Source: Verrucomicrobiota bacterium (GTDB lineage: Bacteria > Verrucomicrobiota > Verrucomicrobiia > Limisphaerales > SXTU01). From it: DNA of 64,000 nt. A model generated the notes under the pieces. The model searched no databases. It worked only from the letters and a program-made list of their open reading frames with translations, and had not been told where the DNA came from. Below are positions 7,453-29,796 of this stretch, one piece after another. A program made the position numbers and the translations under genes. Numbering within the stretch: the stretch's first letter is position 1; every line of letters starts with the position of its first letter. The DNA lies in NCBI GenBank assembly GCA_016235545.1, contig JACRKB010000128.1, positions 580 through 64,579 on the forward strand, in the 5' to 3' direction.

Positions 7453-8334
7453 ATGACCGCCCCTGAACCGCACGTCAACGAACTCGCCGATTACGAGCGC
7501 GTCATCCGGCCCAAGAAGGGCCTCGTGGCCGTGGACTTCGACGAGCTGTGGCGCTACCGCGAGCTGTTCTGGTTCCTGGCCTGGCGCGACATCCTCGTGC
7601 GCTACAAGCAGGCCGCGCTCGGCGTCGCGTGGGCGGTGCTCAAGCCATTCCTTACGATGGTCGTGTTCACGATCGTCTTCGGAAAGCTCGCGGGCTTCTC
7701 TGAGAAGAAGGGGATGAACTTCGAGACCTACGCCGTGCTGACGCTGGCCGGGCTGCTCCCGTGGCAGTTCTTCGCCAATGCGATGGGCGAGAGCAGCAAC
7801 TCGCTCGTCGGCTCCTCGAACATGATTTCCAAAATCTATTTCCCGCGCCTCATCATCCCGGCCAGCGCGGTCATCAGCGGCGCGGTGGACTTCGCCATCG
7901 GGCTGGTCATCCTGTTCGGCGTGATGTTGTGGGCGGGCGTGAGCTGGCAACTGCACTTGCTCCTGCTGCCGGTGTTCTTCCTCGTCGCCTTCGCCGCCGC
8001 GTTTGCCATCGGCCTGTGGCTCTCGGCGCTGAACGTGAAGTATCGCGACGTGAAATACATCGTGCCGTTCATCGTGCAGATGGGCCTCTACGCCAGCCCG
8101 GTGGCGTTTCCGTCCAGCCTCGTGCGGGAGAAGTTCGGCGACACGGTGTTCTTTCTCTTCAGCCTGAACCCGATGGTTGGGGTGATTGACGGCTTCCGTT
8201 GGTGTGTGCTGGGCGGGGCGTTTGAGCCGTATTGGCCGGGCTTCGGCGTGAGCATCGGGGTCATCGCCGCGCTGCTGGTCAGCGGCGCGCTCTACTTCCG
8301 CCGCGCGGAGAAGACGTTTGCGGATGTGATTTAA
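7453..8334 (+). CDS. wzm: ABC-2 type polysaccharide/O-antigen export permease (Wzm/TagG/KpsM family)
   Basis: 293 aa with about 6 TM segments and the N-terminal motif LVRYKQAALGVAWAVLKPFLTMVVFTIVFGKL typical of ABC-2 permeases. It is followed by a Wzt-type ATPase. Confidence 0.85.
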   Translation: MTAPEPHVNELADYERVIRPKKGLVAVDFDELWRYRELFWFLAWRDILVRYKQAALGVAWAVLKPFLTMVVFTIVFGKLAGFSEKKGMNFETYAVLTLAGLLPWQFFANAMGESSNSLVGSSNMISKIYFPRLIIPASAVISGAVDFAIGLVILFGVMLWAGVSWQLHLLLLPVFFLVAFAAAFAIGLWLSALNVKYRDVKYIVPFIVQMGLYASPVAFPSSLVREKFGDTVFFLFSLNPMVGVIDGFRWCVLGGAFEPYWPGFGVSIGVIAALLVSGALYFRRAEKTFADVI

Positions 8335-8511
8335 CCACGAATGGACACGAATGGACACGAATGGGGCGTCGGCGTGCTGCGTGTTGCGTGTTGCGTGACT
8401 ACGGCAGGACGCGCTCAAAGTCATTCACGGAACACGAAACACGCAGCACCTCACCGTTCTCCTCAATTCGGCTGGTTTCCCATTCGTGTTCCTTCGTGTC
8501 CATTCGTGGTT
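8333..8511. repeat. Nested palindromic element filling the wzm-wzt intergenic region
   Basis: The outer IR is 8333-8364 (aaccacgaatggacacgaatggacacgaatgg, containing ~3 tandem 10-mers) against 8480-8511 (ccattcgtgttccttcgtgtccattcgtggtt). The inner IR is 8374-8397 (gtgctgcgtgttgcgtgttgcgtg) against 8426-8449. It overlaps the wzm stop codon. Confidence 0.8.
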
Positions 8512-8523
8512 GCCGCCTGACCC

Positions 8524-9726
8524 ATGTCCAAGCCCATCATCAGCGTCCGCAGCATCTCCAAGCAGTATCGGCTCGGCATGGCCAAGTCGCAGGACACTCT
8601 GCGCGACCAGCTTTCGCACTGGGCCAAAAGCCTCGGCAAACCGCACGAGGCCGCCAATGAGTCCTTCTGGGCGCTGCGCGATGTCTCCTTCGATGTCCAG
8701 CCCGGCGAGGTCATCGGCATCATCGGGCGCAACGGCGCGGGCAAGTCCACGCTGCTCAAAGTCCTCAGCCAGATCACCGAGCCGACAGAGGGCGAGATTT
8801 ACCTGCGCGGACGGCTCGCGTCGCTGCTGGAGGTCGGCACCGGCTTTCATCAGGAACTCACGGGCCGCGAGAACATCTTCCTCAACGGCGTCATCCTCGG
8901 CATGACCAAGGCGGAAGTGCGCGCGAAGTTCGACGAGATCGTCGAGTTCGCCGAGGTTGGCAAATTCCTCGACACCCCGGTGAAGCGCTATTCCTCGGGG
9001 ATGTATGTGCGCCTCGCCTTCGCTGTCGCCGCCCATCTGGAGCCGGAGATTCTCGTGGTGGACGAGGTGCTCGCGGTGGGCGACGCCGCGTTCCAGAACA
9101 AGTGCCTGGGCAAGATGCAGGATGTGGCCAAGAATTGCGGGCGCACCGTGCTCTTCGTCAGCCACAACATGGCCGCCGTGCAGGCGCTCTGCGGGCGCAT
9201 CATCCACATGGCTGGCGGCAAGCTCATCGGCGACGGCAGCCCGGAAACGCAGATCAACGCCTACCTCGGCGAGATCAAGAAGCCGCGCACCGACACCGCC
9301 GTGCCGTTGGGAAAAATCATCGAGTGCCGCCAGCTGGAGTTCAACCCGAACCCTGTCGTCAGCGGGCAGCCGTTGGAGTTCACACTCGAACTTGGCACCA
9401 AGCAGCGCACCCAGCTCATCGCCGTGGCCATCCTGATTTACAGCGCCTTCGGCCAGCGCGTGGCCATCCTCGACCTCCGCACGACCGCCGGCCAGTTTCC
9501 CATCGAGCCGGGCCAGCCATTCCGCTGCACGGGCCGCATCAAGAACTTTCCCCTTGTCGAAGGCGACTACCGCGTGGGCCTCTACATGCAATGCTCCGAG
9601 TATGACGGTGACTATCACGACCTTGCCTCGCTGACCGTGAGCGCCGCGACGAAGGAAGGCGAACTCGCCCCCTACGCCGCGCACTTCCGCGGGCTGGTGG
9701 AGCTGGATTGCGAATTGAAGTTCTGA
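8524..9726 (+). CDS. wzt: Polysaccharide ABC exporter ATPase with C-terminal glycan-binding domain (Wzt/TagH family)
   Basis: 400 aa with Walker A GRNGAGKST, the signature YSSGMYVRLAFA and Walker B ILVVDEVLAVGD. About 150 extra C-terminal residues look like the Wzt_C beta-sandwich. Confidence 0.85.
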   Translation: MSKPIISVRSISKQYRLGMAKSQDTLRDQLSHWAKSLGKPHEAANESFWALRDVSFDVQPGEVIGIIGRNGAGKSTLLKVLSQITEPTEGEIYLRGRLASLLEVGTGFHQELTGRENIFLNGVILGMTKAEVRAKFDEIVEFAEVGKFLDTPVKRYSSGMYVRLAFAVAAHLEPEILVVDEVLAVGDAAFQNKCLGKMQDVAKNCGRTVLFVSHNMAAVQALCGRIIHMAGGKLIGDGSPETQINAYLGEIKKPRTDTAVPLGKIIECRQLEFNPNPVVSGQPLEFTLELGTKQRTQLIAVAILIYSAFGQRVAILDLRTTAGQFPIEPGQPFRCTGRIKNFPLVEGDYRVGLYMQCSEYDGDYHDLASLTVSAATKEGELAPYAAHFRGLVELDCELKF

Positions 9727-11618: not shown

Positions 11619-11753
11619 GGGCGCATCTTGACACTGCCCCCGGAGCGCCGGTCTCCGACCCGGCGGGTGGTGCAAAGCACCCGGAAACGCGCCGGATCGG
11701 AGATCGGCGCACCGCAATGCCAGTCAAGTCGGGGGCAGTGTCAAGATGCGCCC
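11619..11753. mobile_element. MITE-like 135-bp element with perfect 23-bp terminal inverted repeats and 9-bp target-site duplication
   Basis: The left end GGGCGCATCTTGACACTGCCCCC (11619-11641) is the exact reverse complement of the right end GGGGGCAGTGTCAAGATGCGCCC (11731-11753). Identical AAACATGGC copies flank it at 11610-11618 and 11754-11762. The interior is itself partly palindromic. Confidence 0.75.
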
Positions 11754-12750
11754 AAACATGGCTGGACGCGAGATTTCAACTTGGTCCGACGAGCGGACTG
11801 CGGGTAGGCTCCCTGCGCTCGTGGCTTCGACATTGGACAATCTCCCGCCGCACCGACATCGCGTCTATGGTCTGACTGTCGCGACATGGATTCCCTTTCC
11901 CGAATTGGAACCCGCGCCCGCCGACGCACCGGTGGACGCCGTCTTCCGCCTCGGCGAGGTGCCGACGGAACTGGCATCACCTCAGTTCTCGGGGGCGTGC
12001 TTCCAAACCGCGCCGGACAGCCTCTTGATGTGGGTGACAGAAGGTGCGCACTACCTGGTCAGGGCTGGGCGGGAAATCATCGTCCAACCCAAGCCTGGTG
12101 CTCCTCTGGATGCGGTGCGTGTTCTGTTGCTCTGCTGGCCTATGGGTGCGCTTTTGCTGCAACGAAGACTGCTGCCCCTCCACGCCAGTGTAATAGCCGC
12201 GCCGCGTGGGGCGGTTGCGTTCTTGGGAGCGTCCCGGGCCGGCAAGTCCACGCTCGCGGCTCATTTTCGAAAGGCCGGCTTTCGGGTGCTCTCCGACGAC
12301 ATCGCCGTGGTTCACTTTGCTCCCGATGGCCGGCCTTGGATTGCACCCGGGTATCCCCAATTCAAGTTATGGCCTGAGGTGGCAGAAAAACTCGGGGAGG
12401 ACGCCAGACGAATGCCGAATCTCTGGCCGAGCCAGCCCAAACGGTCGCTTTCGTTTCGGAGCGAGTTTCACTCCACAAGCCTCCCAATCGCCCGGCTCTA
12501 CGTCCTGGAACCCGTGGCTACAGATGAAGTTCAGTTGAGCCGGCTAGCTCCTTTCGAGAGCATCCGTTGCCTGGCCGAGCACACGTATCGCGCTCAATTT
12601 GTCCCGGGGTTGGGCTTGCAGAGCAGCCATTTCCAGTCCATCGCACGCTTAGCGGACGCAGTGCCCCTCACACGCGTCAGGCGTCCTGCACAAGGATTCC
12701 AACCGGAGAAGCTCACTTCAGTGCTGGCAGCAGACTTTGGGATGCCCTGA
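11746..12750 (+). CDS. HPr-kinase-like serine/threonine kinase of lasso-peptide clusters (precursor C-terminal kinase type)
   Basis: P-loop LHASVIAAPRGAVAFLGASRAGKSTLAAHF followed by VLSDDIAVV resembles the HprK C-terminal domain. It lies immediately upstream of B1/B2 genes. The ATG at 11746 is inside the MITE end, so the native start is probably ATG 11758 (MAGRE...). Confidence 0.75.
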   Translation: MRPNMAGREISTWSDERTAGRLPALVASTLDNLPPHRHRVYGLTVATWIPFPELEPAPADAPVDAVFRLGEVPTELASPQFSGACFQTAPDSLLMWVTEGAHYLVRAGREIIVQPKPGAPLDAVRVLLLCWPMGALLLQRRLLPLHASVIAAPRGAVAFLGASRAGKSTLAAHFRKAGFRVLSDDIAVVHFAPDGRPWIAPGYPQFKLWPEVAEKLGEDARRMPNLWPSQPKRSLSFRSEFHSTSLPIARLYVLEPVATDEVQLSRLAPFESIRCLAEHTYRAQFVPGLGLQSSHFQSIARLADAVPLTRVRRPAQGFQPEKLTSVLAADFGMP

Positions 12751-12861: not shown

Positions 12862-13167
12862 ATGCCACAGACGTTTTTGAACTTGGACTCGCGGGTCGCC
12901 CGGTCGACGGACTTGATCAGCAGTTCGGTGAGCGGCCAGACAGCCTTGATGAGCATCGCCAACGGGGCTTACTACGGGCTGGACCCAGTGGGCAGCCGCA
13001 TTTGGGAACTGATTGCAGAGCGTCGTCGGGTCGGGGCGATCTGCGAACAACTACTTGCAGAATTCGCCGTTGACCGGGCCAAGTGCGAAACTCAGGTGCT
13101 TGCATTCCTCCACCGACTGGCCAATGACGGGCTTCTGAGTGTGAGCCATGAGCAGCCGCGTGCTTAA
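12862..13167 (+). CDS. Lasso peptide biosynthesis PqqD-family chaperone (B1 / RiPP recognition element)
   Basis: Taking ATG 12862 gives 101 aa. The sequence LMSIANGAYYGLDPVGSRIWELIAERRRVGAICEQLLAEFAVDRAKCETQVLAFLHRLANDGLL is a typical PqqD/RRE pattern. Its 3' end overlaps the B2 start by 20 nt. Confidence 0.8.
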   Translation: MPQTFLNLDSRVARSTDLISSSVSGQTALMSIANGAYYGLDPVGSRIWELIAERRRVGAICEQLLAEFAVDRAKCETQVLAFLHRLANDGLLSVSHEQPRA

Positions 13168-13591
13168 GCTTGGGCGATGCAACTGGAGCGACCAAGCGCT
13201 GCTGATGGAGGCGGTGGCTTGGCTCTGCGGTGCCCGGCTCCTGCTCCTGCTCCTGCCATTTCGCTGGCTGGCCCCAAGGCTGGGCCAGGCGATGAGCGAA
13301 AGTCCGGCCCAGATAACCGAGCCTGAGCGCAAACTCGCCCTGCGGGTTTCATGGGCCGTCCAAGCAGTCGCCAGGAATCTCCCCCTCGGTTTTGTGTGTC
13401 TGCCCCAGGCGATCGCGGCCAAGTGGATGCTACAGCGGCGGCAACTCGCCACCACGCTCTACCTCGGAGTGGGCCGACCGGAGGATGCGGCACTCACCGC
13501 TCACGCTTGGTTGCGTGCCGGGGACAACATTCTCACCGGACGGGAAGCGAGCCTCCAGCACACAACCATCGCGTGGTTCGGCGACAAGTGA
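13148..13591 (+). CDS. Lasso peptide biosynthesis B2 protein (transglutaminase-like leader peptidase)
   Basis: 147 aa. The sequence FVCLPQAIAAKWMLQRRQLATTLYLGVGR...LTAHAWLRAGDNILTG matches the McjB-C / Transglut_core3 pattern, with a catalytic Cys and the His of AHAW. Confidence 0.85.
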   Translation: MSSRVLKLGRCNWSDQALLMEAVAWLCGARLLLLLLPFRWLAPRLGQAMSESPAQITEPERKLALRVSWAVQAVARNLPLGFVCLPQAIAAKWMLQRRQLATTLYLGVGRPEDAALTAHAWLRAGDNILTGREASLQHTTIAWFGDK

Positions 13592-13739
13592 TGCCATTGT
13601 TCACAAATGCGGTTGGCGGACGGGGGTAGCTGGTGGCGATTCAACCCTTCCCCGCCTCCACAAATAGATAAAAAATGCTTGCGCCAGCCATCGAAATCCA
13701 AGACAACGGAGACCGGTTTTTGAATCAACTAATCAATTT

Positions 13740-13880
13740 ATGAAAAACGACACCGAAACGCAGGACTCACAGCTCGAAAAGAAACAGTGGAACGAGCCGA
13801 CCGTCACCGAACTTTCCATCAACTTTGACACCCTTATCGGCTTAAACGCAGCCGTTGACGGTCTTAACACCAACACCTGA
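13740..13880 (+). CDS. Candidate lasso peptide precursor (46 aa), not in the ORF track
   Basis: ATG 13740 to TGA 13878-13880 translates to MKNDTETQDSQLEKKQWNEPTVTELSINFDTLIGLNAAVDGLNTNT. The leader has a WxxP motif and a Thr at -2 if cleaved after TL. The putative core IGLNAAVDGLNTNT has Asp8. The ORF lies in a locally AT-rich stretch, directly after B2 and directly before a strong terminator. Confidence 0.6.
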   Translation: MKNDTETQDSQLEKKQWNEPTVTELSINFDTLIGLNAAVDGLNTNT

Positions 13881-13904
13881 AGTTCAGGTCGAAAAGCTTC
13901 TTCC

Positions 13905-13942
13905 CGCCACGCTTGGGCTTTTCCAAGCGTGGCGTTTTCTTT
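13905..13942 (+). terminator. Rho-independent terminator after the precursor ORF (possibly bidirectional)
   Basis: A perfect 12-bp stem, cgccacgcttgg (13905-13916) against ccaagcgtggcg (13923-13934), has loop gctttt and is followed by ttttcttt (13935-13942). It sits between the convergent precursor and cyclase genes. Confidence 0.8.
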
Positions 13943-13983
13943 GAGTTGCGAAGCAATGCGCCGCAGAAAATCCTGCTCCCAAA

Positions 13984-15936
13984 TCATCTCGACCAAGGCA
14001 AGGGCCGTTCAATTTCGGGGCTGTCAAAGCGAAGGAGAAACATCCCCACCATCGTCCCGCGGGTGATCAGAGTCACGCACTCCATCGTGTTTTGCGCATT
14101 GATTCCGTATTGGAGTGAGTCAAGCACCCGCCGCAGGTGAGGCACGTCAACTGCCTCGTTCGCCAACGCAGAGCGTTCCATCCGCTCAAAAACCTCCCGT
14201 AACTCGTGAGCGGAAGCTCGAATCCGATAGCCGATATCCATCGCCTGCTTGCCGCGCTTGGGATTGAGGCGAACGGCGTCCGGGAGCAATCCATCCATCG
14301 CGCGCCTGAGCAACCATCGGGTTTGACCCCGGTGATAGAATTGGCTGTTGGGCACCCGCAGACAAAACTCAATCAACTCGGGGTCCATTGTCGGATCGCG
14401 CACGTCCAGGCCATAGGCGGCACCCAGTTCGGCCCAGCCACAGCCCACCGGGTTCTCCGCCAAGTTCATGACCGCCAGGCGTTCTTGATGCGGGTCCGAG
14501 AAGGAGAAGCTGGGGTTGTGTCCCGTGTCCTGCATCCGCTCGCGCAGATTCAATCCACGGGCAAACTCAGTCCGAATCGCCGAGTAGTTCAACCACGGTT
14601 CCTGCCAGTTCCCTTTTCGTTGCCGCCAACTCTCTCTGAGCGGTAGCAGGGCCGGCCGCAGCAGATGCCGACGGAAGACCATCGCGGCGGTGGGCTGCAG
14701 CTTTCTGGCGCGACCCCACAGGCCCCGCCAGCGCCCGTGCAGCAGGTCGGGCCACAAGCTCTCTGGCCAGCCAGTCCAGGAAACGCCGCCGTTGCCGAAC
14801 TGGCCCGTCAACAAAACACCGATCCCCCGTGCCCTCGCTTGTTCGAGCATGTCCACGATCCAAAAATGATTCACCGCCCCGTGCCCGGGTTCATCGCAAA
14901 TCTCCAAAACTCGTGCGAAGCCCGCCAGCGGAGAAATGCGCTCACCTCGGACATACTGCACATCCAGATTTCCGAAGTGAGCGCGGTTGGCCTCCACCAA
15001 CGGCTGCTCGTCGAAGAACAAGCCGGGCAGCTCAAACTCGATCTTGTGTAGCGGCACTGAGCAAAACGCCGCCAGTCGGCGTCCCTCGGCACGAAGCTCC
15101 CGTGCCGCCAGGGCGCAAACCGAACCGGAATCAAGCCCTCCGCTCAACGTGCCGCCCACCGCCCGCCCGCCGCGCATCCGCACCCGCACGGCGCGCGTGA
15201 ACTGTTCCCGGAACGCCTCGACGTATTCATCGTCGGACTTGAGCTCCAATGGAGCCAAAGTCTCGGGAAACCAATACCGCCGCTTCCTCATCTGGCCGCC
15301 CGCGCAAATGGTGAGGGTGTGTCCCGGTTCCAGTCGCACGATGCCTTCATACCCGCACAAATTGCCCCGGCCACTCCACGCTGTCAGCACTTGCGCAACG
15401 CGCAAGAGGTTTGGACGGCGCGGCATTTCTGGCACGGCCAGCAGGGCCTTGACACAGGAGGCGAACGCAAACCACCGCGGATTCGCGTGATAATAGAGGG
15501 AACTCACTCCGCACGGGCATTGGGCCAGGAACAAGCGGCGCTCGCGGGACTCCCAGATGGCGAACGCGAAATCACCGCGGAGGTGGAGCACGCAATCCTC
15601 ACCCCACTTCTGGAAGGCTCGCAGAATCAGCTCACCATCCCGCACGGCGGTGTGATTGTTCCCAGCAAGTGCGAGCTGGGTGGCCAGTTCCTCCCGGTTG
15701 TCCAAGCGAGCGGCCGCCGTGATGATCAGCCCGCCGTCTGAATCACGCAGGGGCAGCTGCTCCTGCAAACTTTCATGCGTGGCGTGCCGCAATAAATGCC
15801 CAAGCCCCACGTTGCCATCGTGCCAGAGGCCGGCACCGTCCGGCCCCCAGTAGGCCATCGCCCCGCGCATCCCTTCGAGGGCGCTGCGATCCACGGGCCT
15901 TCCATCCAGGGAGAAATAGCCGTAAATGCCACTCAT
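13984..15936 (-). CDS. Lasso peptide cyclase (asparagine synthetase-like, C protein)
   Basis: The track ORF is trimmed to ATG 15936 (MSGIYGYFSLDG...), giving 650 aa. It has the AsnB fold with PP-loop TLSGGLDSGSVCALA, but the N-terminal nucleophile Cys is replaced (MSGI instead of MCGI), as expected for lasso cyclases. It is convergent with B1/B2/A. Confidence 0.8.
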   Translation of the reverse strand: MSGIYGYFSLDGRPVDRSALEGMRGAMAYWGPDGAGLWHDGNVGLGHLLRHATHESLQEQLPLRDSDGGLIITAAARLDNREELATQLALAGNNHTAVRDGELILRAFQKWGEDCVLHLRGDFAFAIWESRERRLFLAQCPCGVSSLYYHANPRWFAFASCVKALLAVPEMPRRPNLLRVAQVLTAWSGRGNLCGYEGIVRLEPGHTLTICAGGQMRKRRYWFPETLAPLELKSDDEYVEAFREQFTRAVRVRMRGGRAVGGTLSGGLDSGSVCALAARELRAEGRRLAAFCSVPLHKIEFELPGLFFDEQPLVEANRAHFGNLDVQYVRGERISPLAGFARVLEICDEPGHGAVNHFWIVDMLEQARARGIGVLLTGQFGNGGVSWTGWPESLWPDLLHGRWRGLWGRARKLQPTAAMVFRRHLLRPALLPLRESWRQRKGNWQEPWLNYSAIRTEFARGLNLRERMQDTGHNPSFSFSDPHQERLAVMNLAENPVGCGWAELGAAYGLDVRDPTMDPELIEFCLRVPNSQFYHRGQTRWLLRRAMDGLLPDAVRLNPKRGKQAMDIGYRIRASAHELREVFERMERSALANEAVDVPHLRRVLDSLQYGINAQNTMECVTLITRGTMVGMFLLRFDSPEIERPLPWSR

Positions 15937-16053
15937 ACGATTCGTTTCAACGAAAGGGTCGGCGGCGGTCCTTGGACTCGATACCTGCCTGATCAAACCA
16001 CCGCGCGCGCTTTGTCATAGAGTGCAGCATAGCTAAGGACTACGGCGACAAGT

Positions 16054-17109
16054 TTATGGGGTAGAGCCGCGGGAATTGGAGTTGATCGTCGGCGAAAGCT
16101 GAGGTTCAAGCTGTCGGGCAAATTCCTCGGCAATCACGCGATTCACCCAAGGCCGCAGATGCCCGCCTGAATGCGGATTGTGCAGGGGCAGCTCCGGAAT
16201 CGAGGCGCGCGTGGACTCGACTGCTGGCCACCAGTCTGCGAACGCCACAGAATTGCTGGCCGCCCACGACTTGAGCCAGTCATACGAATGCGAGGGCGCG
16301 GCGGCCCAACCGACCACCAGAGTTGTGTTCGTGGCACGGCACTGCACCTTTAACCGTTCGAATACGCTCCGCTGCTGCTCTGCCACGGAAGGGCCGGAGC
16401 GCACACCGGCAGGCACCGAGGACGTGGGCGGTCGTTTCACCGCCACTCGGAGACGCTTGCCAATCTCCGTCTCTGCCGCCCAGCGCGCGAGCGGCAACGT
16501 CGCGCCCCAGCGCGGGCTGCCATCCACCAGATGCCGGTGTCGGTCGCCGCGCAGGAACATGGCGTCATCGCTTCCGTCGTTCTCCGCACCGAGATAGAGC
16601 ACCACGTCGGGCCGGCCCAGCTTCTCGATGAAGCGGCGCAGGATGAGCAGCGACTGCTCGCCGCCGTTCGCGGCTAGGCCGAGGTTGATCACCGCCACGC
16701 GTCTCTCGTAACGGCCAGCGGCGTCGCGGTTCAGCAAGAGATCGAGTTGAAAGGGATATACCGCGTCCGCCGGCAGGCCCGTGCCCTGCGTGTAGGAATC
16801 TCCGAGCGCGAACAGGCGGGCGCGGTAGCCAGAGAAATCCTCCTGAAAGTTGACTGTGCCCAACCGGTTGACACGCAGCTCCTGCTGGTGGTCGGTGGTC
16901 CGCAGTGCATGAACGCCCGGCTTTGCGCGGACGCCCAGTTCGGCATCGAACTCGTAGGCCCTCGGAAAGCCGACCAAGTGCATGGGCGCAAACAGCCGCA
17001 GCGCTACTTCGCCGGCCACGAGCATCAGCCCACAAGTAGCCGTCGCCAATGCCAGCCGCGCGAGTGGGCGATGTGAGCGAGCTGGATAGTTGATGTGGGT
17101 CGGAGTCAT
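16054..17109 (-). CDS. SGNH/GDSL-type hydrolase family protein with N-terminal TM anchor
   Basis: 351 aa with an N-terminal hydrophobic segment, the block I-like LFALGDSYTQGTG, the block III-like YLGAENDGSDD and a C-terminal HSGGH region. It lies between the nucleotidyltransferase and the cyclase. Confidence 0.6.
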   Translation of the reverse strand: MTPTHINYPARSHRPLARLALATATCGLMLVAGEVALRLFAPMHLVGFPRAYEFDAELGVRAKPGVHALRTTDHQQELRVNRLGTVNFQEDFSGYRARLFALGDSYTQGTGLPADAVYPFQLDLLLNRDAAGRYERRVAVINLGLAANGGEQSLLILRRFIEKLGRPDVVLYLGAENDGSDDAMFLRGDRHRHLVDGSPRWGATLPLARWAAETEIGKRLRVAVKRPPTSSVPAGVRSGPSVAEQQRSVFERLKVQCRATNTTLVVGWAAAPSHSYDWLKSWAASNSVAFADWWPAVESTRASIPELPLHNPHSGGHLRPWVNRVIAEEFARQLEPQLSPTINSNSRGSTP

Positions 17110-17118
17110 CGTCAGACG

Positions 17119-18309
17119 CTAGCCGCGGCGCATGCGCCGGCGCAACCACAGCAGCGGCGCGGCCGGGTAGTAGAGCGCGAACAACCGGTCCGGCAACCGC
17201 AGCATCTTCCAGTTGGCTGGCGACATGAGGCGAGGCCGCAGCACGGCGGCCTTTGCAGACCAGTCGCCACGCAACCGCAGTTGATAGCGGGTCTGCCGCA
17301 GCAGTTCCCGCAGGCCCGGCTGGTCCGCCTCAGCCCGGTTCATGCGCCGCAGTGCAGAGTTGACGAGCCAGCTCACCCGTGACGCATGCACCGTTGGCAC
17401 GTTCACCCGTTCCGGCACCGTGACGCCAAACAGCACTTCCACCAGCCGCGCACCTTGCCAGACGGACGCTTCCACGCCGGACGCCCGAGCCATCCTCATC
17501 ACTTGCGGCCAGTCAACCCCGCCGTGGACCAGCAGCCGTGCCAAGTCCACAAGCCAGAACAGGCGGAACCATTCGTGGCCCGCACCGTGGACGAACAGGT
17601 AGAGCGCCTCCGTCTCCGCCGGCAGCCGCGCCAGTTCGACGCCGCCGAGCGCTTCCCGTGTGCCCGACTTCAGCCACTCATTGAAAGCCTGACGCCCCAG
17701 TCCCTCCAGCCGCCACTCGACCTCGATGCGCACGCCGGTCGCGTCGTTGAAATACTCGAACTCGTGCTTGAGCCGCTGGTATTCGCGGCGCTGCCGGGGC
17801 GTCAGTTCGAAGTCTGGCTGTGAACGGCGGCAGCCGGCGGCGAGCAGAGCCTTGTCGGCGTCGCCGAGGCGGGCGGGTGCGATGAGCAAATCCAAGTCGC
17901 CTGCGTGCCGCACACCGACGCCCCCATAGAGCGCTTGCGCCAGCAGCGGACCCTTCACGCTGAGGAAAGGAATGCCCGCGTTCGCGAACAGCCGGGCGAT
18001 GCGCACCAGCTCCGCAGACCGCACCAGCGCGAGCCGCGCCGTGCGCCGGGCAGTTTCCGTGAGTTGCTCCTGCACAGCCGCAGGCAGCGCCGCGCGCACG
18101 TCTCCGGCGAGGTGATGATGCAGATACGCCCCCACGCGATGCCTCGCGACGACGGCACCAAACGCGGTGGCATCAAGTCCGGCTGGCCAGTGAAAGTCCT
18201 CCGCCCCCGCTGTGCCAAGCGCCAAGCGCAGCAGTTGCACCAGCGCCTTCAACTCCGGCGGCCACGCGGCCACGCGAGGGGACAGTTGGGCTGGCAGCGC
18301 GGCGGTCAT
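17119..18309 (-). CDS. Uncharacterised nucleotidyltransferase (NTP_transf_5 / PF14907-like), lasso-cluster associated
   Basis: 396 aa. The sequence FLSVKGPLLAQALYGGVGVRHAGDLDLLIAP matches the family hallmark (KG..LA...Y......R..gDlDLLv). Its ATG overlaps the stop of the upstream ABC gene (ATGA at 18306-18309). Confidence 0.75.
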   Translation of the reverse strand: MTAALPAQLSPRVAAWPPELKALVQLLRLALGTAGAEDFHWPAGLDATAFGAVVARHRVGAYLHHHLAGDVRAALPAAVQEQLTETARRTARLALVRSAELVRIARLFANAGIPFLSVKGPLLAQALYGGVGVRHAGDLDLLIAPARLGDADKALLAAGCRRSQPDFELTPRQRREYQRLKHEFEYFNDATGVRIEVEWRLEGLGRQAFNEWLKSGTREALGGVELARLPAETEALYLFVHGAGHEWFRLFWLVDLARLLVHGGVDWPQVMRMARASGVEASVWQGARLVEVLFGVTVPERVNVPTVHASRVSWLVNSALRRMNRAEADQPGLRELLRQTRYQLRLRGDWSAKAAVLRPRLMSPANWKMLRLPDRLFALYYPAAPLLWLRRRMRRG

Positions 18310-20087
18310 GGCAAGTCCAGCCCAGCCGACATCAACCGGCGGAAGGCGCCTCCCTCGCGACGGGTCAGTTCACCGGGCGCGCCGCTTTCCACCACGCGCC
18401 CGTGTTCGAGCACGATGACTTGGTCGGCATTCTGAACGGTTGAGAGCCGGTGCGCGATGATGACGAGGGTCAGCTCTCCGTGCAGCCGCTCGATGGCCTG
18501 CTGGATAATCTGCTCGTTCACCGTGTCCAGCGCGCTGGTTGCCTCATCGAGCACCAGCAACGTCGGCTGCCGCAGAAGCGCGCGGGCCAGCGCGAGTCGT
18601 TGCCGCTCACCTCCTGAGAGACGCACGCCGCGGTCGCCCACAATGGTTTCCAAGCCCTGCGGCAGTCGGCTTACAAACTCTTCCGCAGCCGCAGCCCGCA
18701 GCGCGGCGACGAGTTCGGCCTCAGTCGCCTCGGGCCGCGCCCAGAGCAGGTTCGCCCGGATGCTTTCGTGAAACAGAAACGTCTCCTGCGGCACATAGCC
18801 CACGCTCGCGCGCCACGCGTGGACGCGCTCGCCCTCCAGCGCCGCATCGTCCACCAGGACGCGTCCGGCGGAGGGGCGCAACAGGCCCAGCAGCAGGTCG
18901 GCGATGGTGCTCTTGCCCGCGCCCGATGGACCGCAGATGGCGGTCATCTGGCGTGCCGGGATTTTGAGGCTCACACCTGCCAGCACTTCCCGCCCCTCGA
19001 CACCGGGATAGCGGAAGGAAACGGTGTCGAAGCAAACTTCGCCAGCAACCGCGACGCGCGCCATCATCGGCGGGGATGCGGCCTCCTGCGCGGCGATGAA
19101 CTGTTCCCGCAGCTGTTCCGCAGCCGTGAACGATGGAATCATGTGCATCACCCGCTGCCAGTTGCTCTGCAGCGCCGCCAGCCGTGGCAGCAACCGCGCG
19201 AAGATGAAGACAAGCAGCAGCAGCTCGGGCGTGCTCAGGCCCGCGTAGCGCACTGCGGCAAAGAGGAACAAACTCAGCACCACCACCGCGCCCAGTTCGT
19301 AGGCCGCGCGAGTCGTGGCATACACGCGCGTTGCGTCGAGGATGTGCGCGACGATGTCTGCCAGCACACGGCGGAAGTGGGCGAGGTGATGCGCCTCGCG
19401 GCCGTGGCTCTTGGCGACCTTGAGGCCGGCGAGATGCTCCGTGATGGCGGCGGCCATGTCCGCGCGGCGTTCCTGGCCTTCTTTGCCGAGATTGTAGGCG
19501 CGGCGTGTGAGCGGGCGCAGCGCCAGAGCCAGCGCCAGGCCGCTGCCCAGCGCCAGCGCGGTCAACACCGGCGAAAGCGCCAGCGCCAGCGACGCCTGCA
19601 CCAGCGCCACGCCCGCGAGGCCCAACCCCGCGAGCAGTTGCTGCGTGCCGAAGCCGACGCGCTGGATTTCATCCGTGAGCACCTGCGTGATGTCCGACGC
19701 CCGCTGCCGCGTGAAGAACAGCCAGTCCGCCCGGACCATCGCCGCATAAAGCTCTTCGCGCAGCCGGCTCGTGAAAGCGGTCTCAATCCCCGCGTTGAGC
19801 AGATCAAGCGTGTGCCGCAGCGCAATCTGCGCGGCCATGAAGGCGATGAAAATGACCAGCGCCACCGGCAGGGTCAGCGGCAGGCCGACCGCCTGCCACA
19901 CGTCCGCAAGTCCCGTCGCCAGCCCGCTGCTCGCGCGCGGTCCGCCAGTGCCGATGAGTTCCAACACCGGCAGCAGCACCACCAGCCCGGCACCCTCCAG
20001 CACGCCCACCACGACCGTGAGCACGACCGAGAGGCCGACGCGGTTGCCGGCGTGGTTCAGGAAGCAGCGGAGGTAAGTGGCAAGCAT
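18306..20087 (-). CDS. ABC transporter permease/ATPase fusion (lasso peptide exporter, McjD-like D protein)
   Basis: Trimmed to ATG 20087 (MLATYLRCF...), giving 593 aa. It has a 6-TM exporter domain, then Walker A GPSGAGKST, the signature LSGGERQRLALARALL and Walker B LLVLDEATSALD. Confidence 0.85.
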   Translation of the reverse strand: MLATYLRCFLNHAGNRVGLSVVLTVVVGVLEGAGLVVLLPVLELIGTGGPRASSGLATGLADVWQAVGLPLTLPVALVIFIAFMAAQIALRHTLDLLNAGIETAFTSRLREELYAAMVRADWLFFTRQRASDITQVLTDEIQRVGFGTQQLLAGLGLAGVALVQASLALALSPVLTALALGSGLALALALRPLTRRAYNLGKEGQERRADMAAAITEHLAGLKVAKSHGREAHHLAHFRRVLADIVAHILDATRVYATTRAAYELGAVVVLSLFLFAAVRYAGLSTPELLLLVFIFARLLPRLAALQSNWQRVMHMIPSFTAAEQLREQFIAAQEAASPPMMARVAVAGEVCFDTVSFRYPGVEGREVLAGVSLKIPARQMTAICGPSGAGKSTIADLLLGLLRPSAGRVLVDDAALEGERVHAWRASVGYVPQETFLFHESIRANLLWARPEATEAELVAALRAAAAEEFVSRLPQGLETIVGDRGVRLSGGERQRLALARALLRQPTLLVLDEATSALDTVNEQIIQQAIERLHGELTLVIIAHRLSTVQNADQVIVLEHGRVVESGAPGELTRREGGAFRRLMSAGLDLP

Positions 20088-20156
20088 GACAGCGCGTCGG
20101 GCTTGGCTTTGCCCGGTATCCTTGGGCGGCTCAAGCAATTTCTCCGGCGCGGGCCG

Positions 20157-20193
20157 GGAGAAAAGCAAACGGCGCTCCGAGATTCGGAGCGCC
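20157..20193 (-). terminator. Rho-independent terminator ending the long glycan gene array
   Basis: A perfect 10-bp stem, ggcgctccga (20171-20180) against tcggagcgcc (20184-20193), has a 3-nt loop. On the minus strand it is followed by GUUUGCUUUUCUC (complement of 20157-20170). It lies 31 nt after the DUF5989 stop codon. Confidence 0.75.
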
Positions 20194-20223
20194 GCGTGCG
20201 CAGGAAGGAACGTCAATGGCAGA

Positions 20224-20421
20224 TCAGAACAGAGTGTAGATGAACGGGGCCGCAGCCGTGCCACCGAGGATGAGCAGCGCGCCGATGGCCAGCAGCGCCA
20301 GCAGCAGCGGGATGAGCCAGAACTTCTTGTTTTCGCCGAGGAAGGCGATGAACTCCTTCACGAGGCCGGGCTGCGCCTGCTCGCCAGCCTTCTCAAAGTC
20401 GTTTGGTTTCTGGTCGCTCAT
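20224..20421 (-). CDS. DUF5989 family small membrane protein (SxtK-like)
   Basis: Real start is ATG 20421, giving 65 aa: MSDQKPNDFEKAGEQAQPGLVKEFIAFLGENKKFWLIPLLLALLAIGALLILGGTAAAPFIYTLF. The KKFWL...APFIYTLF ending is the family hallmark. Confidence 0.8.
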   Translation of the reverse strand: MSDQKPNDFEKAGEQAQPGLVKEFIAFLGENKKFWLIPLLLALLAIGALLILGGTAAAPFIYTLF

Positions 20422-20444
20422 GTCGTGCCTTTCATCGAGGCCAT

Positions 20445-20885
20445 CTAGAACTGACGGTAGTAACGCTTTGCTTCCGGTGCGGGCGGCGCGTCCACCCAAT
20501 AGGTGCTGGCCTGTCGATCCGGAGTCTTGCGGATGGGCTGCCGCCCGCCAAGCCGTTTCAGGAAGCCGATGCCCGTGACCAGCACGTAGAAAATCAGGCC
20601 CAGCAGGACATTGCCAACGACAATCCCGACGCAGCACGCGAGCGCATACCAGACGATGTAAAACGGCCTGGCGATGGCAGGCACCACGTAGAAGAGCGCG
20701 CCAGCCGCCGCGCCGCCGCCGCCGAGTTTCAGCGCGAAGGAAAGATTCCAGCCCTTGCCCGCGAGGAGGCCGGCCAACAGGAAGGCAACCGCGACACACG
20801 GAAACCCGATGACCAAGCTCCGTGCAAACGTGCGGAGCGCCGCCCTGTCCGGGTTCCAGTTAACTTCTTTGAACGGGTTGACCAT
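20445..20885 (-). CDS. SxtJ-like small membrane protein
   Basis: The track start is TTG; ATG 20885 (MVNPFKEV...) gives 146 aa with 3-4 TM helices. It holds the position between a carbamoyltransferase and DUF5989, as in SxtI-J-K type triads. Confidence 0.65.
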   Translation of the reverse strand: MVNPFKEVNWNPDRAALRTFARSLVIGFPCVAVAFLLAGLLAGKGWNLSFALKLGGGGAAAGALFYVVPAIARPFYIVWYALACCVGIVVGNVLLGLIFYVLVTGIGFLKRLGGRQPIRKTPDRQASTYWVDAPPAPEAKRYYRQF

Positions 20886-20890
20886 GTGGC

Positions 20891-22741
20891 TCAATCCAGC
20901 TTGAAACTCTCAATGTATCTTTTCCGTTGACCTTCGTCCTGCTGCGGCTGCTCGGTGCGGCGGAGCACGCAGTTCTCCAGCACCAGCAAGTCCATATCCG
21001 ACGCCCTGAAGCAGCGGTAAGCGTCCTGCGGCGTGCAGACGATCGGCTCGCCCCGGATGTTGAAGCTCGTGTTGATGATGACGCCGCAGCGGGTCTGGCG
21101 TTTGAACTCCTTCATCAGCCGCCAGTAACGCCCGTGCCGCTCCTCGTCCACGGTTTGAATGCGCGCACTCATGTCCACATGGGTGATGGCCGGCAGCGTC
21201 GAGCGTAGGACGTTCACGCGCTTGCGCAGATCGGGGTCTTTCTGCAACTGCCGCTGCTCGGGCGTGAGCGGCAGCCTATGTTTCTTCTTCACGTCGGCCA
21301 CCATCAGCATGTAGGGCGACTCGCGGTCGTGGTCGAAATACTTGGCCACATCCTCGATGAGCACGCACGGAGCGAAGGGGCGGAAGCTCTCGCGGAATTT
21401 GATGCGCACGTTCATCTGCGACTGCATCGCCGGGCTTCGCGGGTCGCCGATGATGCTGCGCGCGCCGAGTGCGCGTGGGCCGAATTCCATACGTCCGCTG
21501 AACCAGCCGACCACTTTCTCCGAGGCCATTTCCTTCGCGACAGCTTCCAGCAACTCCGGCTCCTGCTCGTAAAACGTGTAGCGAACTTGCTGGCCGTCGA
21601 GGAAAGCGCGGATTTCCTCGTTCGAGAATTTCGGACCGAGCAGCGAGCCTTTGAGCGAGTCTTTCCGCGAAGCCGTGTGCGTGCGCGGCTGGTCGAGCAA
21701 CTGGTGTTGCACAAAGAGCGCCGCGCCCAGCGCACCGCCCGCATCGCCCGACGCGGGCGTGACAAACACGTCCTCGAAGATTCCAGCGCGGAGCAACCTG
21801 CCATTTGCGACGCAATTGAGCGCGACGCCGCCTGCGAGGCAGAGATTCTTGCTGCCGGTAAGCTCCTTCGCATGCCGGGCCATGCGCAGGACAATCTCCT
21901 CCGTGACCTTTTGAATCGAGGCTGCGATGTCCATCTCGCGCTGCGTGATGGCGGACTCGACGCTGCGTGCGGGGCCGCCGAAGAGCGACGCGAACTTGGC
22001 GTTCGTCATTGTCAGCCCCTGGCAGAAGTTGAAGTAGCTCATGTCCATCGCGAGCGAGCCGTCGGGCTTCACGTCCACGAGATGCTTGAGAATGGTGTCC
22101 ACGTATCGCGGCTCACCGTAGGGCGCGAGGCCCATGAGCTTGTATTCTCCCGAGTTGACCTTGAAGCCGCAGAAGTAGGTCACCGCGCTGTAAAGCAGGC
22201 CGAGCGAGTGTGGGAAGTGAAGCGTTTTGAGGAGTTTGATTTTGTTCCCCTGCCCATGCCCGATGGTCGCGGTGTCCCACTCGCCGACTCCGTCGAGCGT
22301 GAGGATGGCCGCGTCTTCGTAGGCCGACGGAAAAAAGGTGCTGGCCGCATGCGACTCGTGGTGGCCTGTGAACGCGATGCGTTTTCTGTAGCGGCCTCCA
22401 AGAGCGTTCCGAATCTCGCGGGGCAGGTGCAGCTTGGTCTTCAGCCACACCGGCATCGCCATCATGAAGGACTGAAGTCCGGCGGGCGCGAATGCGAGGT
22501 AGGTTTCCAGCAGGCGGTCGAACTTGAGCAGCGGCTTGTCGTAGAAGACGACATGGTCGAGCTGCTCTGGCGTGAGGCCGGCCTCGCGCAGGCAGTAATC
22601 CACGGCGTGCTTCGGAAACTCGGAGTCATGCTTGATGCGCGTGAAGCGTTCCTCCTGCGCGGCGGCGACGATGTCCCCATCCACAACGAGCGCGGCGGCG
22701 CTGTCGTGGTAGTAGGCGGAGATGCCGAGAATGCGGGCCAT
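20891..22741 (-). CDS. Carbamoyltransferase (NodU/CmcH family)
   Basis: 616 aa. The sequence MARILGISAYYHDSAAALVVDGDIVAAAQEERFTRIKHD has the typical N-terminal ASKHA-like fold signature, and a C-terminal YrdC-like carbamoyltransferase domain is present. Confidence 0.9.
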   Translation of the reverse strand: MARILGISAYYHDSAAALVVDGDIVAAAQEERFTRIKHDSEFPKHAVDYCLREAGLTPEQLDHVVFYDKPLLKFDRLLETYLAFAPAGLQSFMMAMPVWLKTKLHLPREIRNALGGRYRKRIAFTGHHESHAASTFFPSAYEDAAILTLDGVGEWDTATIGHGQGNKIKLLKTLHFPHSLGLLYSAVTYFCGFKVNSGEYKLMGLAPYGEPRYVDTILKHLVDVKPDGSLAMDMSYFNFCQGLTMTNAKFASLFGGPARSVESAITQREMDIAASIQKVTEEIVLRMARHAKELTGSKNLCLAGGVALNCVANGRLLRAGIFEDVFVTPASGDAGGALGAALFVQHQLLDQPRTHTASRKDSLKGSLLGPKFSNEEIRAFLDGQQVRYTFYEQEPELLEAVAKEMASEKVVGWFSGRMEFGPRALGARSIIGDPRSPAMQSQMNVRIKFRESFRPFAPCVLIEDVAKYFDHDRESPYMLMVADVKKKHRLPLTPEQRQLQKDPDLRKRVNVLRSTLPAITHVDMSARIQTVDEERHGRYWRLMKEFKRQTRCGVIINTSFNIRGEPIVCTPQDAYRCFRASDMDLLVLENCVLRRTEQPQQDEGQRKRYIESFKLD

Positions 22742-22753
22742 ACGACGAAGGGC

Positions 22754-23893
22754 TCAGTGCCTGTTGCCGACCAGCGAGCGGTAGATTTCGTCCATCTGCC
22801 GCAGCGGCTCGGCCCAGGAAAGCTGCGACATCACTTCATTCCGGCGGCTGGTCAAGCGTGCACGCTCCACCGGGTCGAGCATCGTGCGGAGACCATTGGC
22901 GAGCGTCTCCACGCCCAGCGGCACGGCCAGGCCGGCACGCTCGTGGATGGCCGGGGCGATGCCGCAGGTGTCGGTGAGCAGCACTGGCAAGCCGGCGGCC
23001 ACGGCCTCAGCCACCGCGTTGCCGTAGCTTTCGATGAGCGAGGGCATCACAAACAAATCGGCGGCGGCGAGGGCCGAGAGTTTTTCCTCGTCGTAGAGCG
23101 CGCCGGCGAACGCGATGTCGCCCGTGATGCCAAGACGCTGCGCCACGGCTCGGAGCCGCGTTTCGTAATCTGGCTCGGCGGGGCCGACGAGCGCGAGGGT
23201 TGTGTCGGCCGGGCGCACGCGGGCGAAGGCTTCGAGGAATTGCTCCAGGTTCTTCACCGGACTCAGCCGACCGAGGAAGAGGACGACGCGGCGGTCGGCG
23301 GGAATTCCCAGCTTGCGCCGAAAGATGTCGGCGTCGGGAAGGTTTGCGAAACTCTCAACATCAATGCCGTTGCGGCGCAGCACTAGCTTTGGCGGTTGCC
23401 CCAGCGGCTCGAGCTCCTTGAACTCCTGCGGCGAAGTGGCGATGACGAATTGCGCCTGTCGCGCGATGCGATGCGTGAAGGCGTGGTGGTAGAGTCGCTT
23501 CGCCCAGAGGTTCCGCCCGCGCGGCAAATACCCGCCGAGCGGTTCGAGCACGCAGGGTTTCCCCGCCTGAGCGGCGGCGCGGGCAGCGAGCGGGGTAAGT
23601 GAGTTGTAGAGTCCGTAGATGTGAACCACGTCCGCCGCCGCGACTGCCTGCGTGATCAGCCGCCGATCCGTAGGCCATTGGCGCAGGCCGCTGCCCCGCC
23701 AGGGCAGATACTGCACGTGGACACCGTCGTAGTGGGTGGACGCGGAGCGCGCTGAGTCCTCTGAAAAAAAAGTCAGCACGGACACCTCGTGTCCGTGCTG
23801 GCGCAAGCCCTGAGCAAGGGCGTGAATTTTGAGCGGCGGGCCGCCGAACTTCAGCTCCGGGAAATAGACGCCAGTTGCTTTCAGGACGCGCAT
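22754..23893 (-). CDS. Glycosyltransferase family 4 (GT-B, group 1)
   Basis: 379 aa starting MRVLKATGVYFPELKFGGP, with a C-terminal E..G.....EA motif region (PSLIESYGNAVAEAVAAGLPVL). Confidence 0.85.
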   Translation of the reverse strand: MRVLKATGVYFPELKFGGPPLKIHALAQGLRQHGHEVSVLTFFSEDSARSASTHYDGVHVQYLPWRGSGLRQWPTDRRLITQAVAAADVVHIYGLYNSLTPLAARAAAQAGKPCVLEPLGGYLPRGRNLWAKRLYHHAFTHRIARQAQFVIATSPQEFKELEPLGQPPKLVLRRNGIDVESFANLPDADIFRRKLGIPADRRVVLFLGRLSPVKNLEQFLEAFARVRPADTTLALVGPAEPDYETRLRAVAQRLGITGDIAFAGALYDEEKLSALAAADLFVMPSLIESYGNAVAEAVAAGLPVLLTDTCGIAPAIHERAGLAVPLGVETLANGLRTMLDPVERARLTSRRNEVMSQLSWAEPLRQMDEIYRSLVGNRH

Positions 23894-23914
23894 GAGCCTA
23901 CCGGAGCTGGGCGA

Positions 23915-25027
23915 TCAACATTTCGCTTTGGGCCGCCTGGAGGGCACGAGACGGTTCACAATTCCGTGGGTGCGGCGTGTGAAGTTTTCGATGGAGAAGT
24001 AGTCCAGACCCGCCGGCACAGGCCCGCGCTCGCGCGCCAAGGTCTTGCGGATTCCCTCGGCCACCGCCCCCGGCGCGCGCGGATCCACCAGCACGCCGAG
24101 TTCTCCGTTGCGCACGGCCTCGCGGCTGCCGTCCACGGCGCTGGCGAGCACGGGGATGCCACAGGCGAGCGCTTCGAGATAGACGATTCCGAATCCTTCA
24201 CCCCAGCCGGGCATCACGAACGCGTTCGCAAGCCGGTAGTGGTCTGCCTTGGTTTCCTCCGGGATGCGCCCGGCGAAGACGACGCGATCTCGAAGGCCCA
24301 GTTGCGCGGCCTTCACCTCCAACCGCTCGCGGTCCGTGCCGTCGCCGCAGATCAGGTAGCTCAAGTTTGGAATTTCCCGGGCCAATTGCGGCATCGCCTC
24401 CAGCACTTCATCCACCCCTTTGTAGCGTTCGTCCGCCGAAAGGCGCGCAAGCGTCATGATTACGGTGCGGCCCGCGAGGCCATACTGCCGCGCAAGCTGC
24501 GCGGGTGCGGGGCCGGGGCCGTAGCTCGACAGCTCCACCGCGCACGGCAGAACATGGCTCCGGGCTGCGGCCACGCCGGACCAGCCGAGGAATCGTTGCT
24601 GCGTCAGCTCGGTGATGGCCACGGCGGCCTCCACTCTCCGGGCGAGCCGGCCATGCAACCGGCTGGCCGGTGCCTGCCACGCTTCCACGCCATACAGATT
24701 CAGAATGACCGGACCACGCACGCGCCAACGCACCAGGGCGGCTGCGGGCAGGAGGTTGAGGTGGCTGCAAACCAGCAGGTCAAACGGCCCTTGGCGAATC
24801 GCGGTGCCAGCCGCCGCGAGGAGAAACTTCAGTTTGCCGCCAGTGCCGTTGGTCAGATGCCTCAGGCGGGGTGGCAGCGGGCCGGGCGCTTCTGGCAACA
24901 ATCGCGGGAGCGCGACCACTTCCGTGACTTCTGGGTGAGCGCATAACGCGCCGAGCAAATCGCGGTTGAACTTGGCGATGCCGCCCTGGCTGCCGAAGCC
25001 ATCCGTGAGCAGGACGAGAATGCGCAT
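23915..25027 (-). CDS. Glycosyltransferase family 4 (GT-B, group 1)
   Basis: 370 aa starting MRILVLLTDGFGSQGGIAKF, with a C-terminal PGWGEGFGIVYLEALACGIPVL motif. Confidence 0.85.
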   Translation of the reverse strand: MRILVLLTDGFGSQGGIAKFNRDLLGALCAHPEVTEVVALPRLLPEAPGPLPPRLRHLTNGTGGKLKFLLAAAGTAIRQGPFDLLVCSHLNLLPAAALVRWRVRGPVILNLYGVEAWQAPASRLHGRLARRVEAAVAITELTQQRFLGWSGVAAARSHVLPCAVELSSYGPGPAPAQLARQYGLAGRTVIMTLARLSADERYKGVDEVLEAMPQLAREIPNLSYLICGDGTDRERLEVKAAQLGLRDRVVFAGRIPEETKADHYRLANAFVMPGWGEGFGIVYLEALACGIPVLASAVDGSREAVRNGELGVLVDPRAPGAVAEGIRKTLARERGPVPAGLDYFSIENFTRRTHGIVNRLVPSRRPKAKC

Positions 25028-25037
25028 CCGCAGGAGT

Positions 25038-26828: not shown

Positions 26829-26867
26829 GGGCGGGAAGCGGGAAGGGGAGCGGGCGGGAAGCGCGAT

Positions 26868-28748: not shown

Positions 28749-28759
28749 ATCCAGCTACT

Positions 28760-29782: not shown

Positions 29783-29796
29783 CGCGGAAAAACCAT

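Follow-up and report, generated by a model that had tools for sequence, protein, structure and literature searches.

Lasso peptide clusters associated with kinases, sulfotransferases or nucleotidyltransferases have already been published (PMC8498205, PMC9266682, PMC6993621, PMC7533575), and those of paeninodin and pseudomycoidin are the closest to the locus described here. In lasso biosynthesis, protein B1 binds the leader of the precursor and presents it to B2, the leader peptidase (PMC5067487). The kinases PadeK, ThcoK, SyanK and PsmK act on the linear precursor, whose C-terminal Ser they phosphorylate (PMC9266682, PMC6993621), and all characterised C-terminal phosphorylations of lasso peptides are on Ser, with none on Thr (PMC10368454). 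PsmN, described as an 'uncharacterised nucleotidyltransferase' in which D134/D136 are essential, adds one or two hexoses to the phosphate; without its modification pseudomycoidin is not threaded, and the phospho-hexose was put forward by its authors as a lock (PMC6993621). Modification as a third locking strategy has so far merely been hypothesised, for pseudomycoidin (PMC6993621). Solved lasso structures range from 14 to 33 aa, and the empirical minima are three residues for the loop and two for the tail (PMC12214591). Gly as first residue was used as a search criterion in PMC7533575, and non-Gly first residues are found in the caulonodins (Ser/Ala), fusilassin/cellulassin (Trp1) and halolassin (Tyr1) (bioRxiv 10.1101/2020.11.25.399105).

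The subject of this analysis is a 46-codon open reading frame in the window, a term used here for the whole stretch of 64,000 nucleotides that was analysed. It runs on the + strand from ATG 13740 to TGA 13880, and is almost certainly a genuine lasso precursor gene (A) of the kinase-tailored (paeninodin/pseudomycoidin) kind. Its translation, MKNDTETQDSQLEKKQWNEPTVTELSINFDTLIGLNAAVDGLNTNT, is identical to the 46-aa peptide given in the preliminary description, and ATG 13740 is the earliest start codon in the stop-to-stop segment, past the in-frame stop preceding 13668. The ORF lies after B2, as had been described, at a distance of 148 nt and not 149 nt (B2 ends at 13591), and the convergent C gene has its 3′ end 103 nt from the ORF. 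The AT-rich island that had been pointed out around it is borne out by composition, with GC of 0.45-0.47 over 13625-13849 against ~0.60-0.68 in the flanks.

Signals lie on both sides of the ORF. A terminator scan places an intrinsic terminator hairpin and T-run at 13905-13934 (+), 24 nt after the precursor stop, in agreement with the perfect 12-bp-stem terminator previously placed within 25 nt of it. The stem comprises 13 pairs (12 Watson-Crick and one G-U) and is followed by TTTTCTTT; the region 13881-13950 folds as RNA with -26.9 kcal/mol (z = -2.9 relative to shuffles), and the stem is kept in the related loci L001 and L005 with a divergent loop. Abutting the precursor ATG is a conserved non-coding block of ~70 nt (13672-13739, +), which is common to the window, L001, L005 and L034 and contains the elements …AAAAATGCTTGC…CGAAAT…GACAAC…CCGGTTTTTGAA…. 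The block has no meaningful match in Rfam, and no match to the sigma-70 consensus was found within 13300-14300, the block included; it may be a lineage-specific promoter, 5′ UTR or translation-initiation region. The precursor has no Pfam or NCBIfam match, even at E = 1, and its earlier designation as unannotated holds for these family models; it does not hold for the homologues, which are present as hypothetical proteins in public assemblies.

The precursor is situated between a kinase-B1-B2 set on the + strand and a convergent cyclase-SGNH-nucleotidyltransferase-ABC set on the - strand, and thus adjoins B1, B2 and C genes recognised by Pfam and NCBIfam models. The first gene of the + strand set encodes an HprK-related peptide kinase (K; 334-aa ORF, 11746..12750), which weakly matches the NCBIfam models HprK_rel_A and HprK_rel_B (TIGR04352, TIGR04355). 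The true start is probably ~25 codons downstream of the ORF start; homologues are ~309 aa in length and carry PF27840 or PF07475. Residues H146, K167, D184 and D185 are invariant in 32 homologues and make up the His-Lys-Asp-Asp kinase motif as given in PMC9266682. An AF2 model of the kinase has a pLDDT of 82, with residues 1-29 below 50, and matches PEPCK and HprK/P folds, including 1kkl (TMt 0.60). B1 is a PqqD-type RiPP recognition element of 101 aa (12862..13167, +; PF05402, E 1e-18; NF033536 lasso_PqqD_Bac, 77 bits) that matches TbiB1 (5v1u, E 4e-14). Its start is placed at ATG 12862, the mechanical ORF beginning at GTG 12799, and the homologous gene in relatives is likewise 101 aa. B2, the leader peptidase, is a protein of 147 aa (13148..13591, +; PF13471, E 1e-24; NF033537 lasso_biosyn_B2, 85.6 bits with a cutoff of 33) whose gene overlaps that of B1 by 20 nt. 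Its candidate catalytic residues are Cys84 and His119, and a sequence search of the PDB with B2 gave nothing meaningful.

On the opposite strand, the lasso macrolactam synthetase C (670-aa ORF, 13984..15996, -) combines Asn_synthase and GATase_7 domains and matches NF033535 with E 4e-121, the score of 405 bits being below the equivalog cutoff of 525; its start is likely Met21, at 15936. It is followed by an SGNH/GDSL-family protein with a hydrophobic N-terminus (16054..17109, -; PF13472, E 5e-6, below the gathering score). No SGNH gene lies between the cyclase and the nucleotidyltransferase in L001-L005, the closest relatives. A Lipase_GDSL_2 gene does adjoin NTP_transf_5 in the more distant locus L036, and so the SGNH gene may be a recurrent tailoring or accessory gene. 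The next protein is an NTP_transf_5 'uncharacterised nucleotidyltransferase' (17119..18309, -; PF14907, E 1e-48) with a D138-x-D140 motif. It may be a PsmN-like putative tailoring enzyme, in which D138-x-D140 would be comparable with D134/D136; this comparison draws on the published description of PsmN. The set ends with the ABC exporter D, a fused permease/ATPase with ABC_membrane and ABC_tran domains (18306..20264, -), which is paired with NTP_transf_5 in every relative that has one.

Comparative evidence for the small ORF came from searches of increasing depth. A word-indexed single-sequence search with the 46-aa peptide returned only the peptide itself and one homologue, and a 2-sequence profile run against 1.84 billion representatives added two more; the family opened up only with a 12-sequence profile, which found 39 proteins, none of them named as a lasso precursor by any source. 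These matches hold 37 distinct homologous cores, mostly from Verrucomicrobiota metagenomes. In addition, 29 genomic loci encoding a relative of the kinase, located with 17 closer kinase sequences, were scanned. An 80% identical 46-aa ORF (P0002) is called as a gene on at least nine contigs of other assemblies, in the same K-B1-B2-A / C-NT-D arrangement as in the window, and a 72% identical ORF occupies the equivalent place in L005. Together, these two ORFs cover L001-L005, and the search for homologous small ORFs at the equivalent position in related clusters, suggested in the preliminary description, thus finds them there. A 39%-identical homologue (P0124) lies immediately upstream of a PqqD gene in another gene arrangement, and a small profile detects further homologues in the kinase-containing clusters L006, L008, L012, L014, L016 (two copies) and L028. 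Four longer contigs (L036-L039) also have homologues inside kinase-containing clusters, here of the form kinase-sulfotransferase-B1-B2-C-A-methyltransferase ... NTP_transf_5-ABC. When the window itself is scanned with the family profile, the precursor ORF is the sole match (E 1e-23); the next best reaches only 0.5, on which ground a second precursor elsewhere in the window was rejected. Codon-position counts over the three closest ORFs give a third-position excess that is no more than moderate, and the case for the gene therefore rests on the deep conservation of the family.

Several features of the related loci were noted in passing. Two precursor genes are present in some relatives (L016, 10789-11193 and 12633-12848; L037, 6162-6620), and a 48-aa precursor homologue in the latter (P0143, L037 6162-6308) bears the JGI name 'phenolic acid decarboxylase', evidently a misannotation. 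L018 (9572-10928) encodes several tandem short ORFs whose leaders follow W-x-x-P-[TA]-L-[TA]-T-W and whose C-termini are odd or very short; these may represent a different type of peptide. The MAG contigs of L005, L008, L014 and L016 are titled 'Klebsiella pneumoniae' or 'uncultured Klebsiella sp.', labels that are probably wrong since the clusters are Verrucomicrobiota-like and their nearest records are from Limisphaerales.

The leader comprises residues 1-32, MKNDTETQDSQLEKKQWNEPTVTELSINFDTL (13740-13835, +). An alignment of 12 sequences, with homologues taken from independent clusters, shows W17, P20, L25, T31 and D40 to be invariant; two features picked out in the preliminary description, the W-x-x-P motif of the leader (W17 and P20) and the Thr at position -2 (T31), are therefore conserved throughout. 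The leader conforms to the RRE-binding motif Y/W-x-x-P-x-L, position 22 being V, L, M, I or Y among the 12 homologues. Thr is found at P+11 in 38 of the 39 profile matches, all 38 with WxxP, the exception being P0159 (E = 2). Eight of 16 residues are identical to the paeninodin-type leader of B. cereus KPR-7A (sequence from PMC7533575, Table 3). How far the motif lies from the cut differs between lasso families; in the B. cereus paeninodin-type leader this distance is one residue shorter (PMC7533575, Table 3).

The core comprises residues 33-46, IGLNAAVDGLNTNT, which are free of Cys and together with the stop codon occupy 13836-13880 (+). When the Thr at P+11 is taken as the canonical -2 residue, the matches yield the 37 distinct cores, and in this register every one of them has Asp at position 8, with no other acidic residue at positions 7-9. 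This pattern, anchored by Thr(-2), supports the Ile1-Asp8 eight-residue ring that had been predicted. Residue 1 is variable (A in 20, G in five, I in four, S in three, T in two, and N, L and M in one each); residue 2 is G in 10 cores and N, M, A, T, Q, S, I or D in the others, and residue 9 is Gly in 28. The cores are 13-29 aa in length, 14 aa in 12 cases, and are composed of 24% Gly, 16% Ala and 16% Thr. To our knowledge, Ile at position 1 has not been experimentally documented for any natural lasso peptide, and many lasso cyclases are strict at this position. Citrulassin has a Leu1-Asp8 ring.

We consider it likely that the peptide encoded by 13740-13880 serves as precursor A in a class II kinase-tailored lasso cluster, and is processed and modified in the following way. 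B1 would bind the WxxP leader and present it to B2. [quoted passage not shown] Cleavage by B2 after Leu32 would release the core, and the cyclase would join the amino group of Ile1 to the side chain of Asp8, forming an 8-residue ring with a 6-residue tail; the product would then be exported by the ABC transporter. What sequence and comparison show is the gene with its conservation, the register of the motifs and the families of the enzymes; the enzyme steps are drawn from analogy with paeninodin and pseudomycoidin.

Alternative readings of the gene and its cut site can be weighed against this proposal. The ORF is short, lacks a Shine-Dalgarno sequence at the usual spacing and matches no family model, as might be expected of a chance, untranslated ORF in an intergenic spacer; the 37 distinct homologous cores with frame-specific invariant residues and a preserved stop, and a position kept across clusters of differing gene order, effectively refute this reading and leave it a probability of practically nil. 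As to the cut, B2 might cleave one residue later, yielding the core GLNAAVDGLNTNT with a seven-residue Gly1-Asp7 ring and the Thr at -3. Gly, the commonest first residue among known lasso peptides, would then be the first residue here, and residue 2 of the present register is indeed Gly in the closest subfamily of the window. The later cut would also place W and P at -17/-14, as for BsfA (PMC10368454), although motif-to-cut spacing varies among lasso families (PMC7533575, Table 3). It would, however, put the invariant Thr at -3 throughout the family, away from the canonical -2, and would make first a residue that is G in only 10 of the 37 cores, whereas the register adopted here begins with Ala or Gly in 25. 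As residue 2 is not conserved, Ile1-Asp8 is favoured over the Gly2-Asp8 ring offered as an alternative in the preliminary description, and a later cut appears very improbable. A cut far upstream, after Val22, would give a core starting TELSINFD with a Thr1-Asp8 ring: the window sequence permits T21 at -2 with D30 eight residues from T23, and the position of D30 is D or E in 31 of the 37 homologues. Such a cut would fall only two residues past WxxP, and the scissile bond would then follow the motif bound by B1 without a spacer. The register Thr23-Asp30 fails, and was rejected, because the position of D30 is G, H or N in six members while Asp40 is invariant; we find this reading scarcely credible.

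For the Ile1-Asp8 peptide, two further questions concern the target of the kinase and the topology of the product. The C-terminal residue, Thr in the window, is Thr in 31, Ser in five and Pro in one of the 37 cores; the hydroxyl is retained, though mostly not on the Ser that ends the characterised paeninodin-type precursors (PMC10368454). The kinase might instead act on another hydroxyl, such as that of core Thr44, or on no residue of this precursor, given that BsfK phosphorylates Ser3 and not the C-terminus (PMC10368454), that all proven C-terminal sites are Ser, and that the tails of the family are Thr-rich, with T the commonest residue in the last five positions. Yet only at the last residue does the tail keep a hydroxyl across the family (36 of 37 cores), Thr44 is replaced by Asn in L005, and more distant kinase-linked precursors end in Ser (L020, L022, L024, L026 and L028). 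A target other than Thr46 therefore seems fairly improbable. More weight, though still that of a minority reading, belongs to the suggestion that the peptide is processed and cyclised but remains a branched-cyclic, unthreaded lariat, at least without tail modification. The lack of plug residues noted earlier for the tail extends to the family, as 28 of the 37 cores, that of the window included, have no F, W, Y, R, H or K after Asp8; the 14-aa core with its tail GLNTNT, a mere six residues, has nothing obvious to hold a thread, and pseudomycoidin made without PsmK and PsmN is unthreaded (PMC6993621). Against a lariat, the six residues past Asp8 are at the lower end of the known range yet satisfy the empirical minima for loop and tail (PMC12214591), and selection for intact B1, B2 and C, along with the hydroxyl preserved at the C-terminus, suggests that it is important for the product to have a defined topology. 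The earlier idea that threading may depend on modification of the tail matches the hypothesis published for pseudomycoidin (PMC6993621). As the tail has no bulky residue, any threading of the peptide would most likely be locked sterically by the modified C-terminus, and by analogy the plug-poor tails of the whole family would fit the idea of a phospho-hexose lock.

The lasso cluster is embedded in an envelope-polysaccharide locus (window 7453-9726, +, and 20240-30954, -), whose genes include a Wzm/Wzt-like ABC system, SxtJ-like, carbamoyltransferase, two GT4, Polysacc_synt_2, WecA-like and epimerase genes. The ABC exporter also has DUF5989, carbamoyltransferase and GT4 genes beside it in L001, L036, L037 and L039, a neighbourhood that could reflect shared ancestry or a functional link. 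The locus also contains, 9 kb from the lasso cyclase, a second asparagine-synthase paralogue of 596 aa with strong Asn_synthase and GATase matches (25038-26828, -), which is probably an amidotransferase of the polysaccharide locus rather than another cyclase. Just upstream of the kinase, L001 (1713-2933), L002, L003, L012 and L013 have a JmjC_2/cupin-type gene, possibly encoding a hydroxylase; in the window there is no such gene upstream of the kinase, which is abutted by a DUF1552 gene. In L036-L039 (e.g. L036 2984-10964), a sulfotransferase is fused into the K-B1-B2-C operon and a PRMT-like methyltransferase follows the precursor; an APS kinase adjoins the cluster in L036, L038 and L039, and L036 also encodes a 2OG-Fe(II)/PqqD fusion. 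These extra enzymes point to heavily tailored, uncharacterised products. The recurrent neighbours (sulfotransferase, methyltransferase, JmjC, SGNH, and carbamoyltransferase/glycosyltransferase by the ABC gene) could link the peptide to envelope-glycan chemistry.

The cluster leaves the known logic of lasso biosynthesis unchanged; what sets it apart from its published relatives is the C-terminal Thr, the minimal 14-aa core, the Ile first residue, the Verrucomicrobiota-like source and the extra SGNH gene. Should it be expressed, the product would rank with the shortest lasso cores found in nature, begin with a beta-branched residue, carry Thr as phosphate acceptor and be the first case worked through from Verrucomicrobiota. 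That position 1 varies freely suggests a cyclase whose N-terminal specificity is unusually relaxed, a property useful for engineering. In this family, nature also offers a means of testing whether a phospho-glycosyl group at the C-terminus can take the place of bulky plug residues in locking a lasso. A bolder proposal, speculative and on balance doubtful, is that the 37 or more distinct cores, which come mostly from Verrucomicrobiota of fresh water and soil, form a sizeable, uncharacterised clade of minimal Gly/Ala/Thr-rich 'plug-less' lassos ending in Thr, held threaded only by a bulky phospho-(glyco) group put on that Thr before cyclisation.

How the locus compares with known systems can be set out as follows. 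Citrulassin resembles the peptide predicted for the window in having an 8-residue ring closed on Asp with a non-Gly alpha-amine donor; the window peptide differs in its beta-branched Ile1, and in its family position 1 varies freely (A, G, I, S, T, N, L or M). Pseudomycoidin (psm, Bacillus pseudomycoides; PMC6993621) is encoded by genes of the same kinds, for an HprK-like kinase, split B1/B2, cyclase, an 'uncharacterised NTP transferase' and an ABC exporter, and its precursor likewise ends in a hydroxy amino acid, begins with a non-Gly residue (Ala1) and has a tail with weak or no intrinsic threading, for which a C-terminal phospho-hexose lock has been proposed. The window differs in its C-terminal Thr in place of Ser, in a predicted Ile1-Asp8 ring as opposed to Ala1-Glu9, and in a 14-aa core far shorter than the ~2.6 kDa pseudomycoidin. 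Its gene order is also unlike that of psm, with convergent operons and A after B2, an SGNH gene is added, and the host is Verrucomicrobiota-like and not a Firmicute; the likeness to PsmN and PsmK is taken from their descriptions. BsfA/BsfK of Bradymonas sediminis (PMC10368454) is likewise a kinase-tailored lasso system in a Gram-negative organism, in which B1 has been proposed to aid both kinase and B2 and the kinase tolerates Thr for Ser. BsfK, however, targets the ring residue Ser3 and the BsfA leader has Ile(-2), whereas the window precursor has the canonical Thr(-2) and a conserved hydroxyl at its C-terminus. With paeninodin (pade, Paenibacillus dendritiformis) and the ThcoK and SyanK systems (PMC9266682, PMC5067487), the window shares the HPr-kinase family with its His-Lys-Asp-Asp motif, a PqqD-type B1 guiding B2, and the leader type [W/Y]xxP[T/S]L...T-x. 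It departs from them in ending in Thr where the paeninodin type has an 'extremely conserved' Ser, in a predicted 8-membered and not 9-membered ring, in a tail free of acidic and aromatic residues, and in the presence of a nucleotidyltransferase. Since the precursor does not end in Ser, it is best said to work like the paeninodin type, and its membership lies in the broader group of kinase-tailored lasso peptides.
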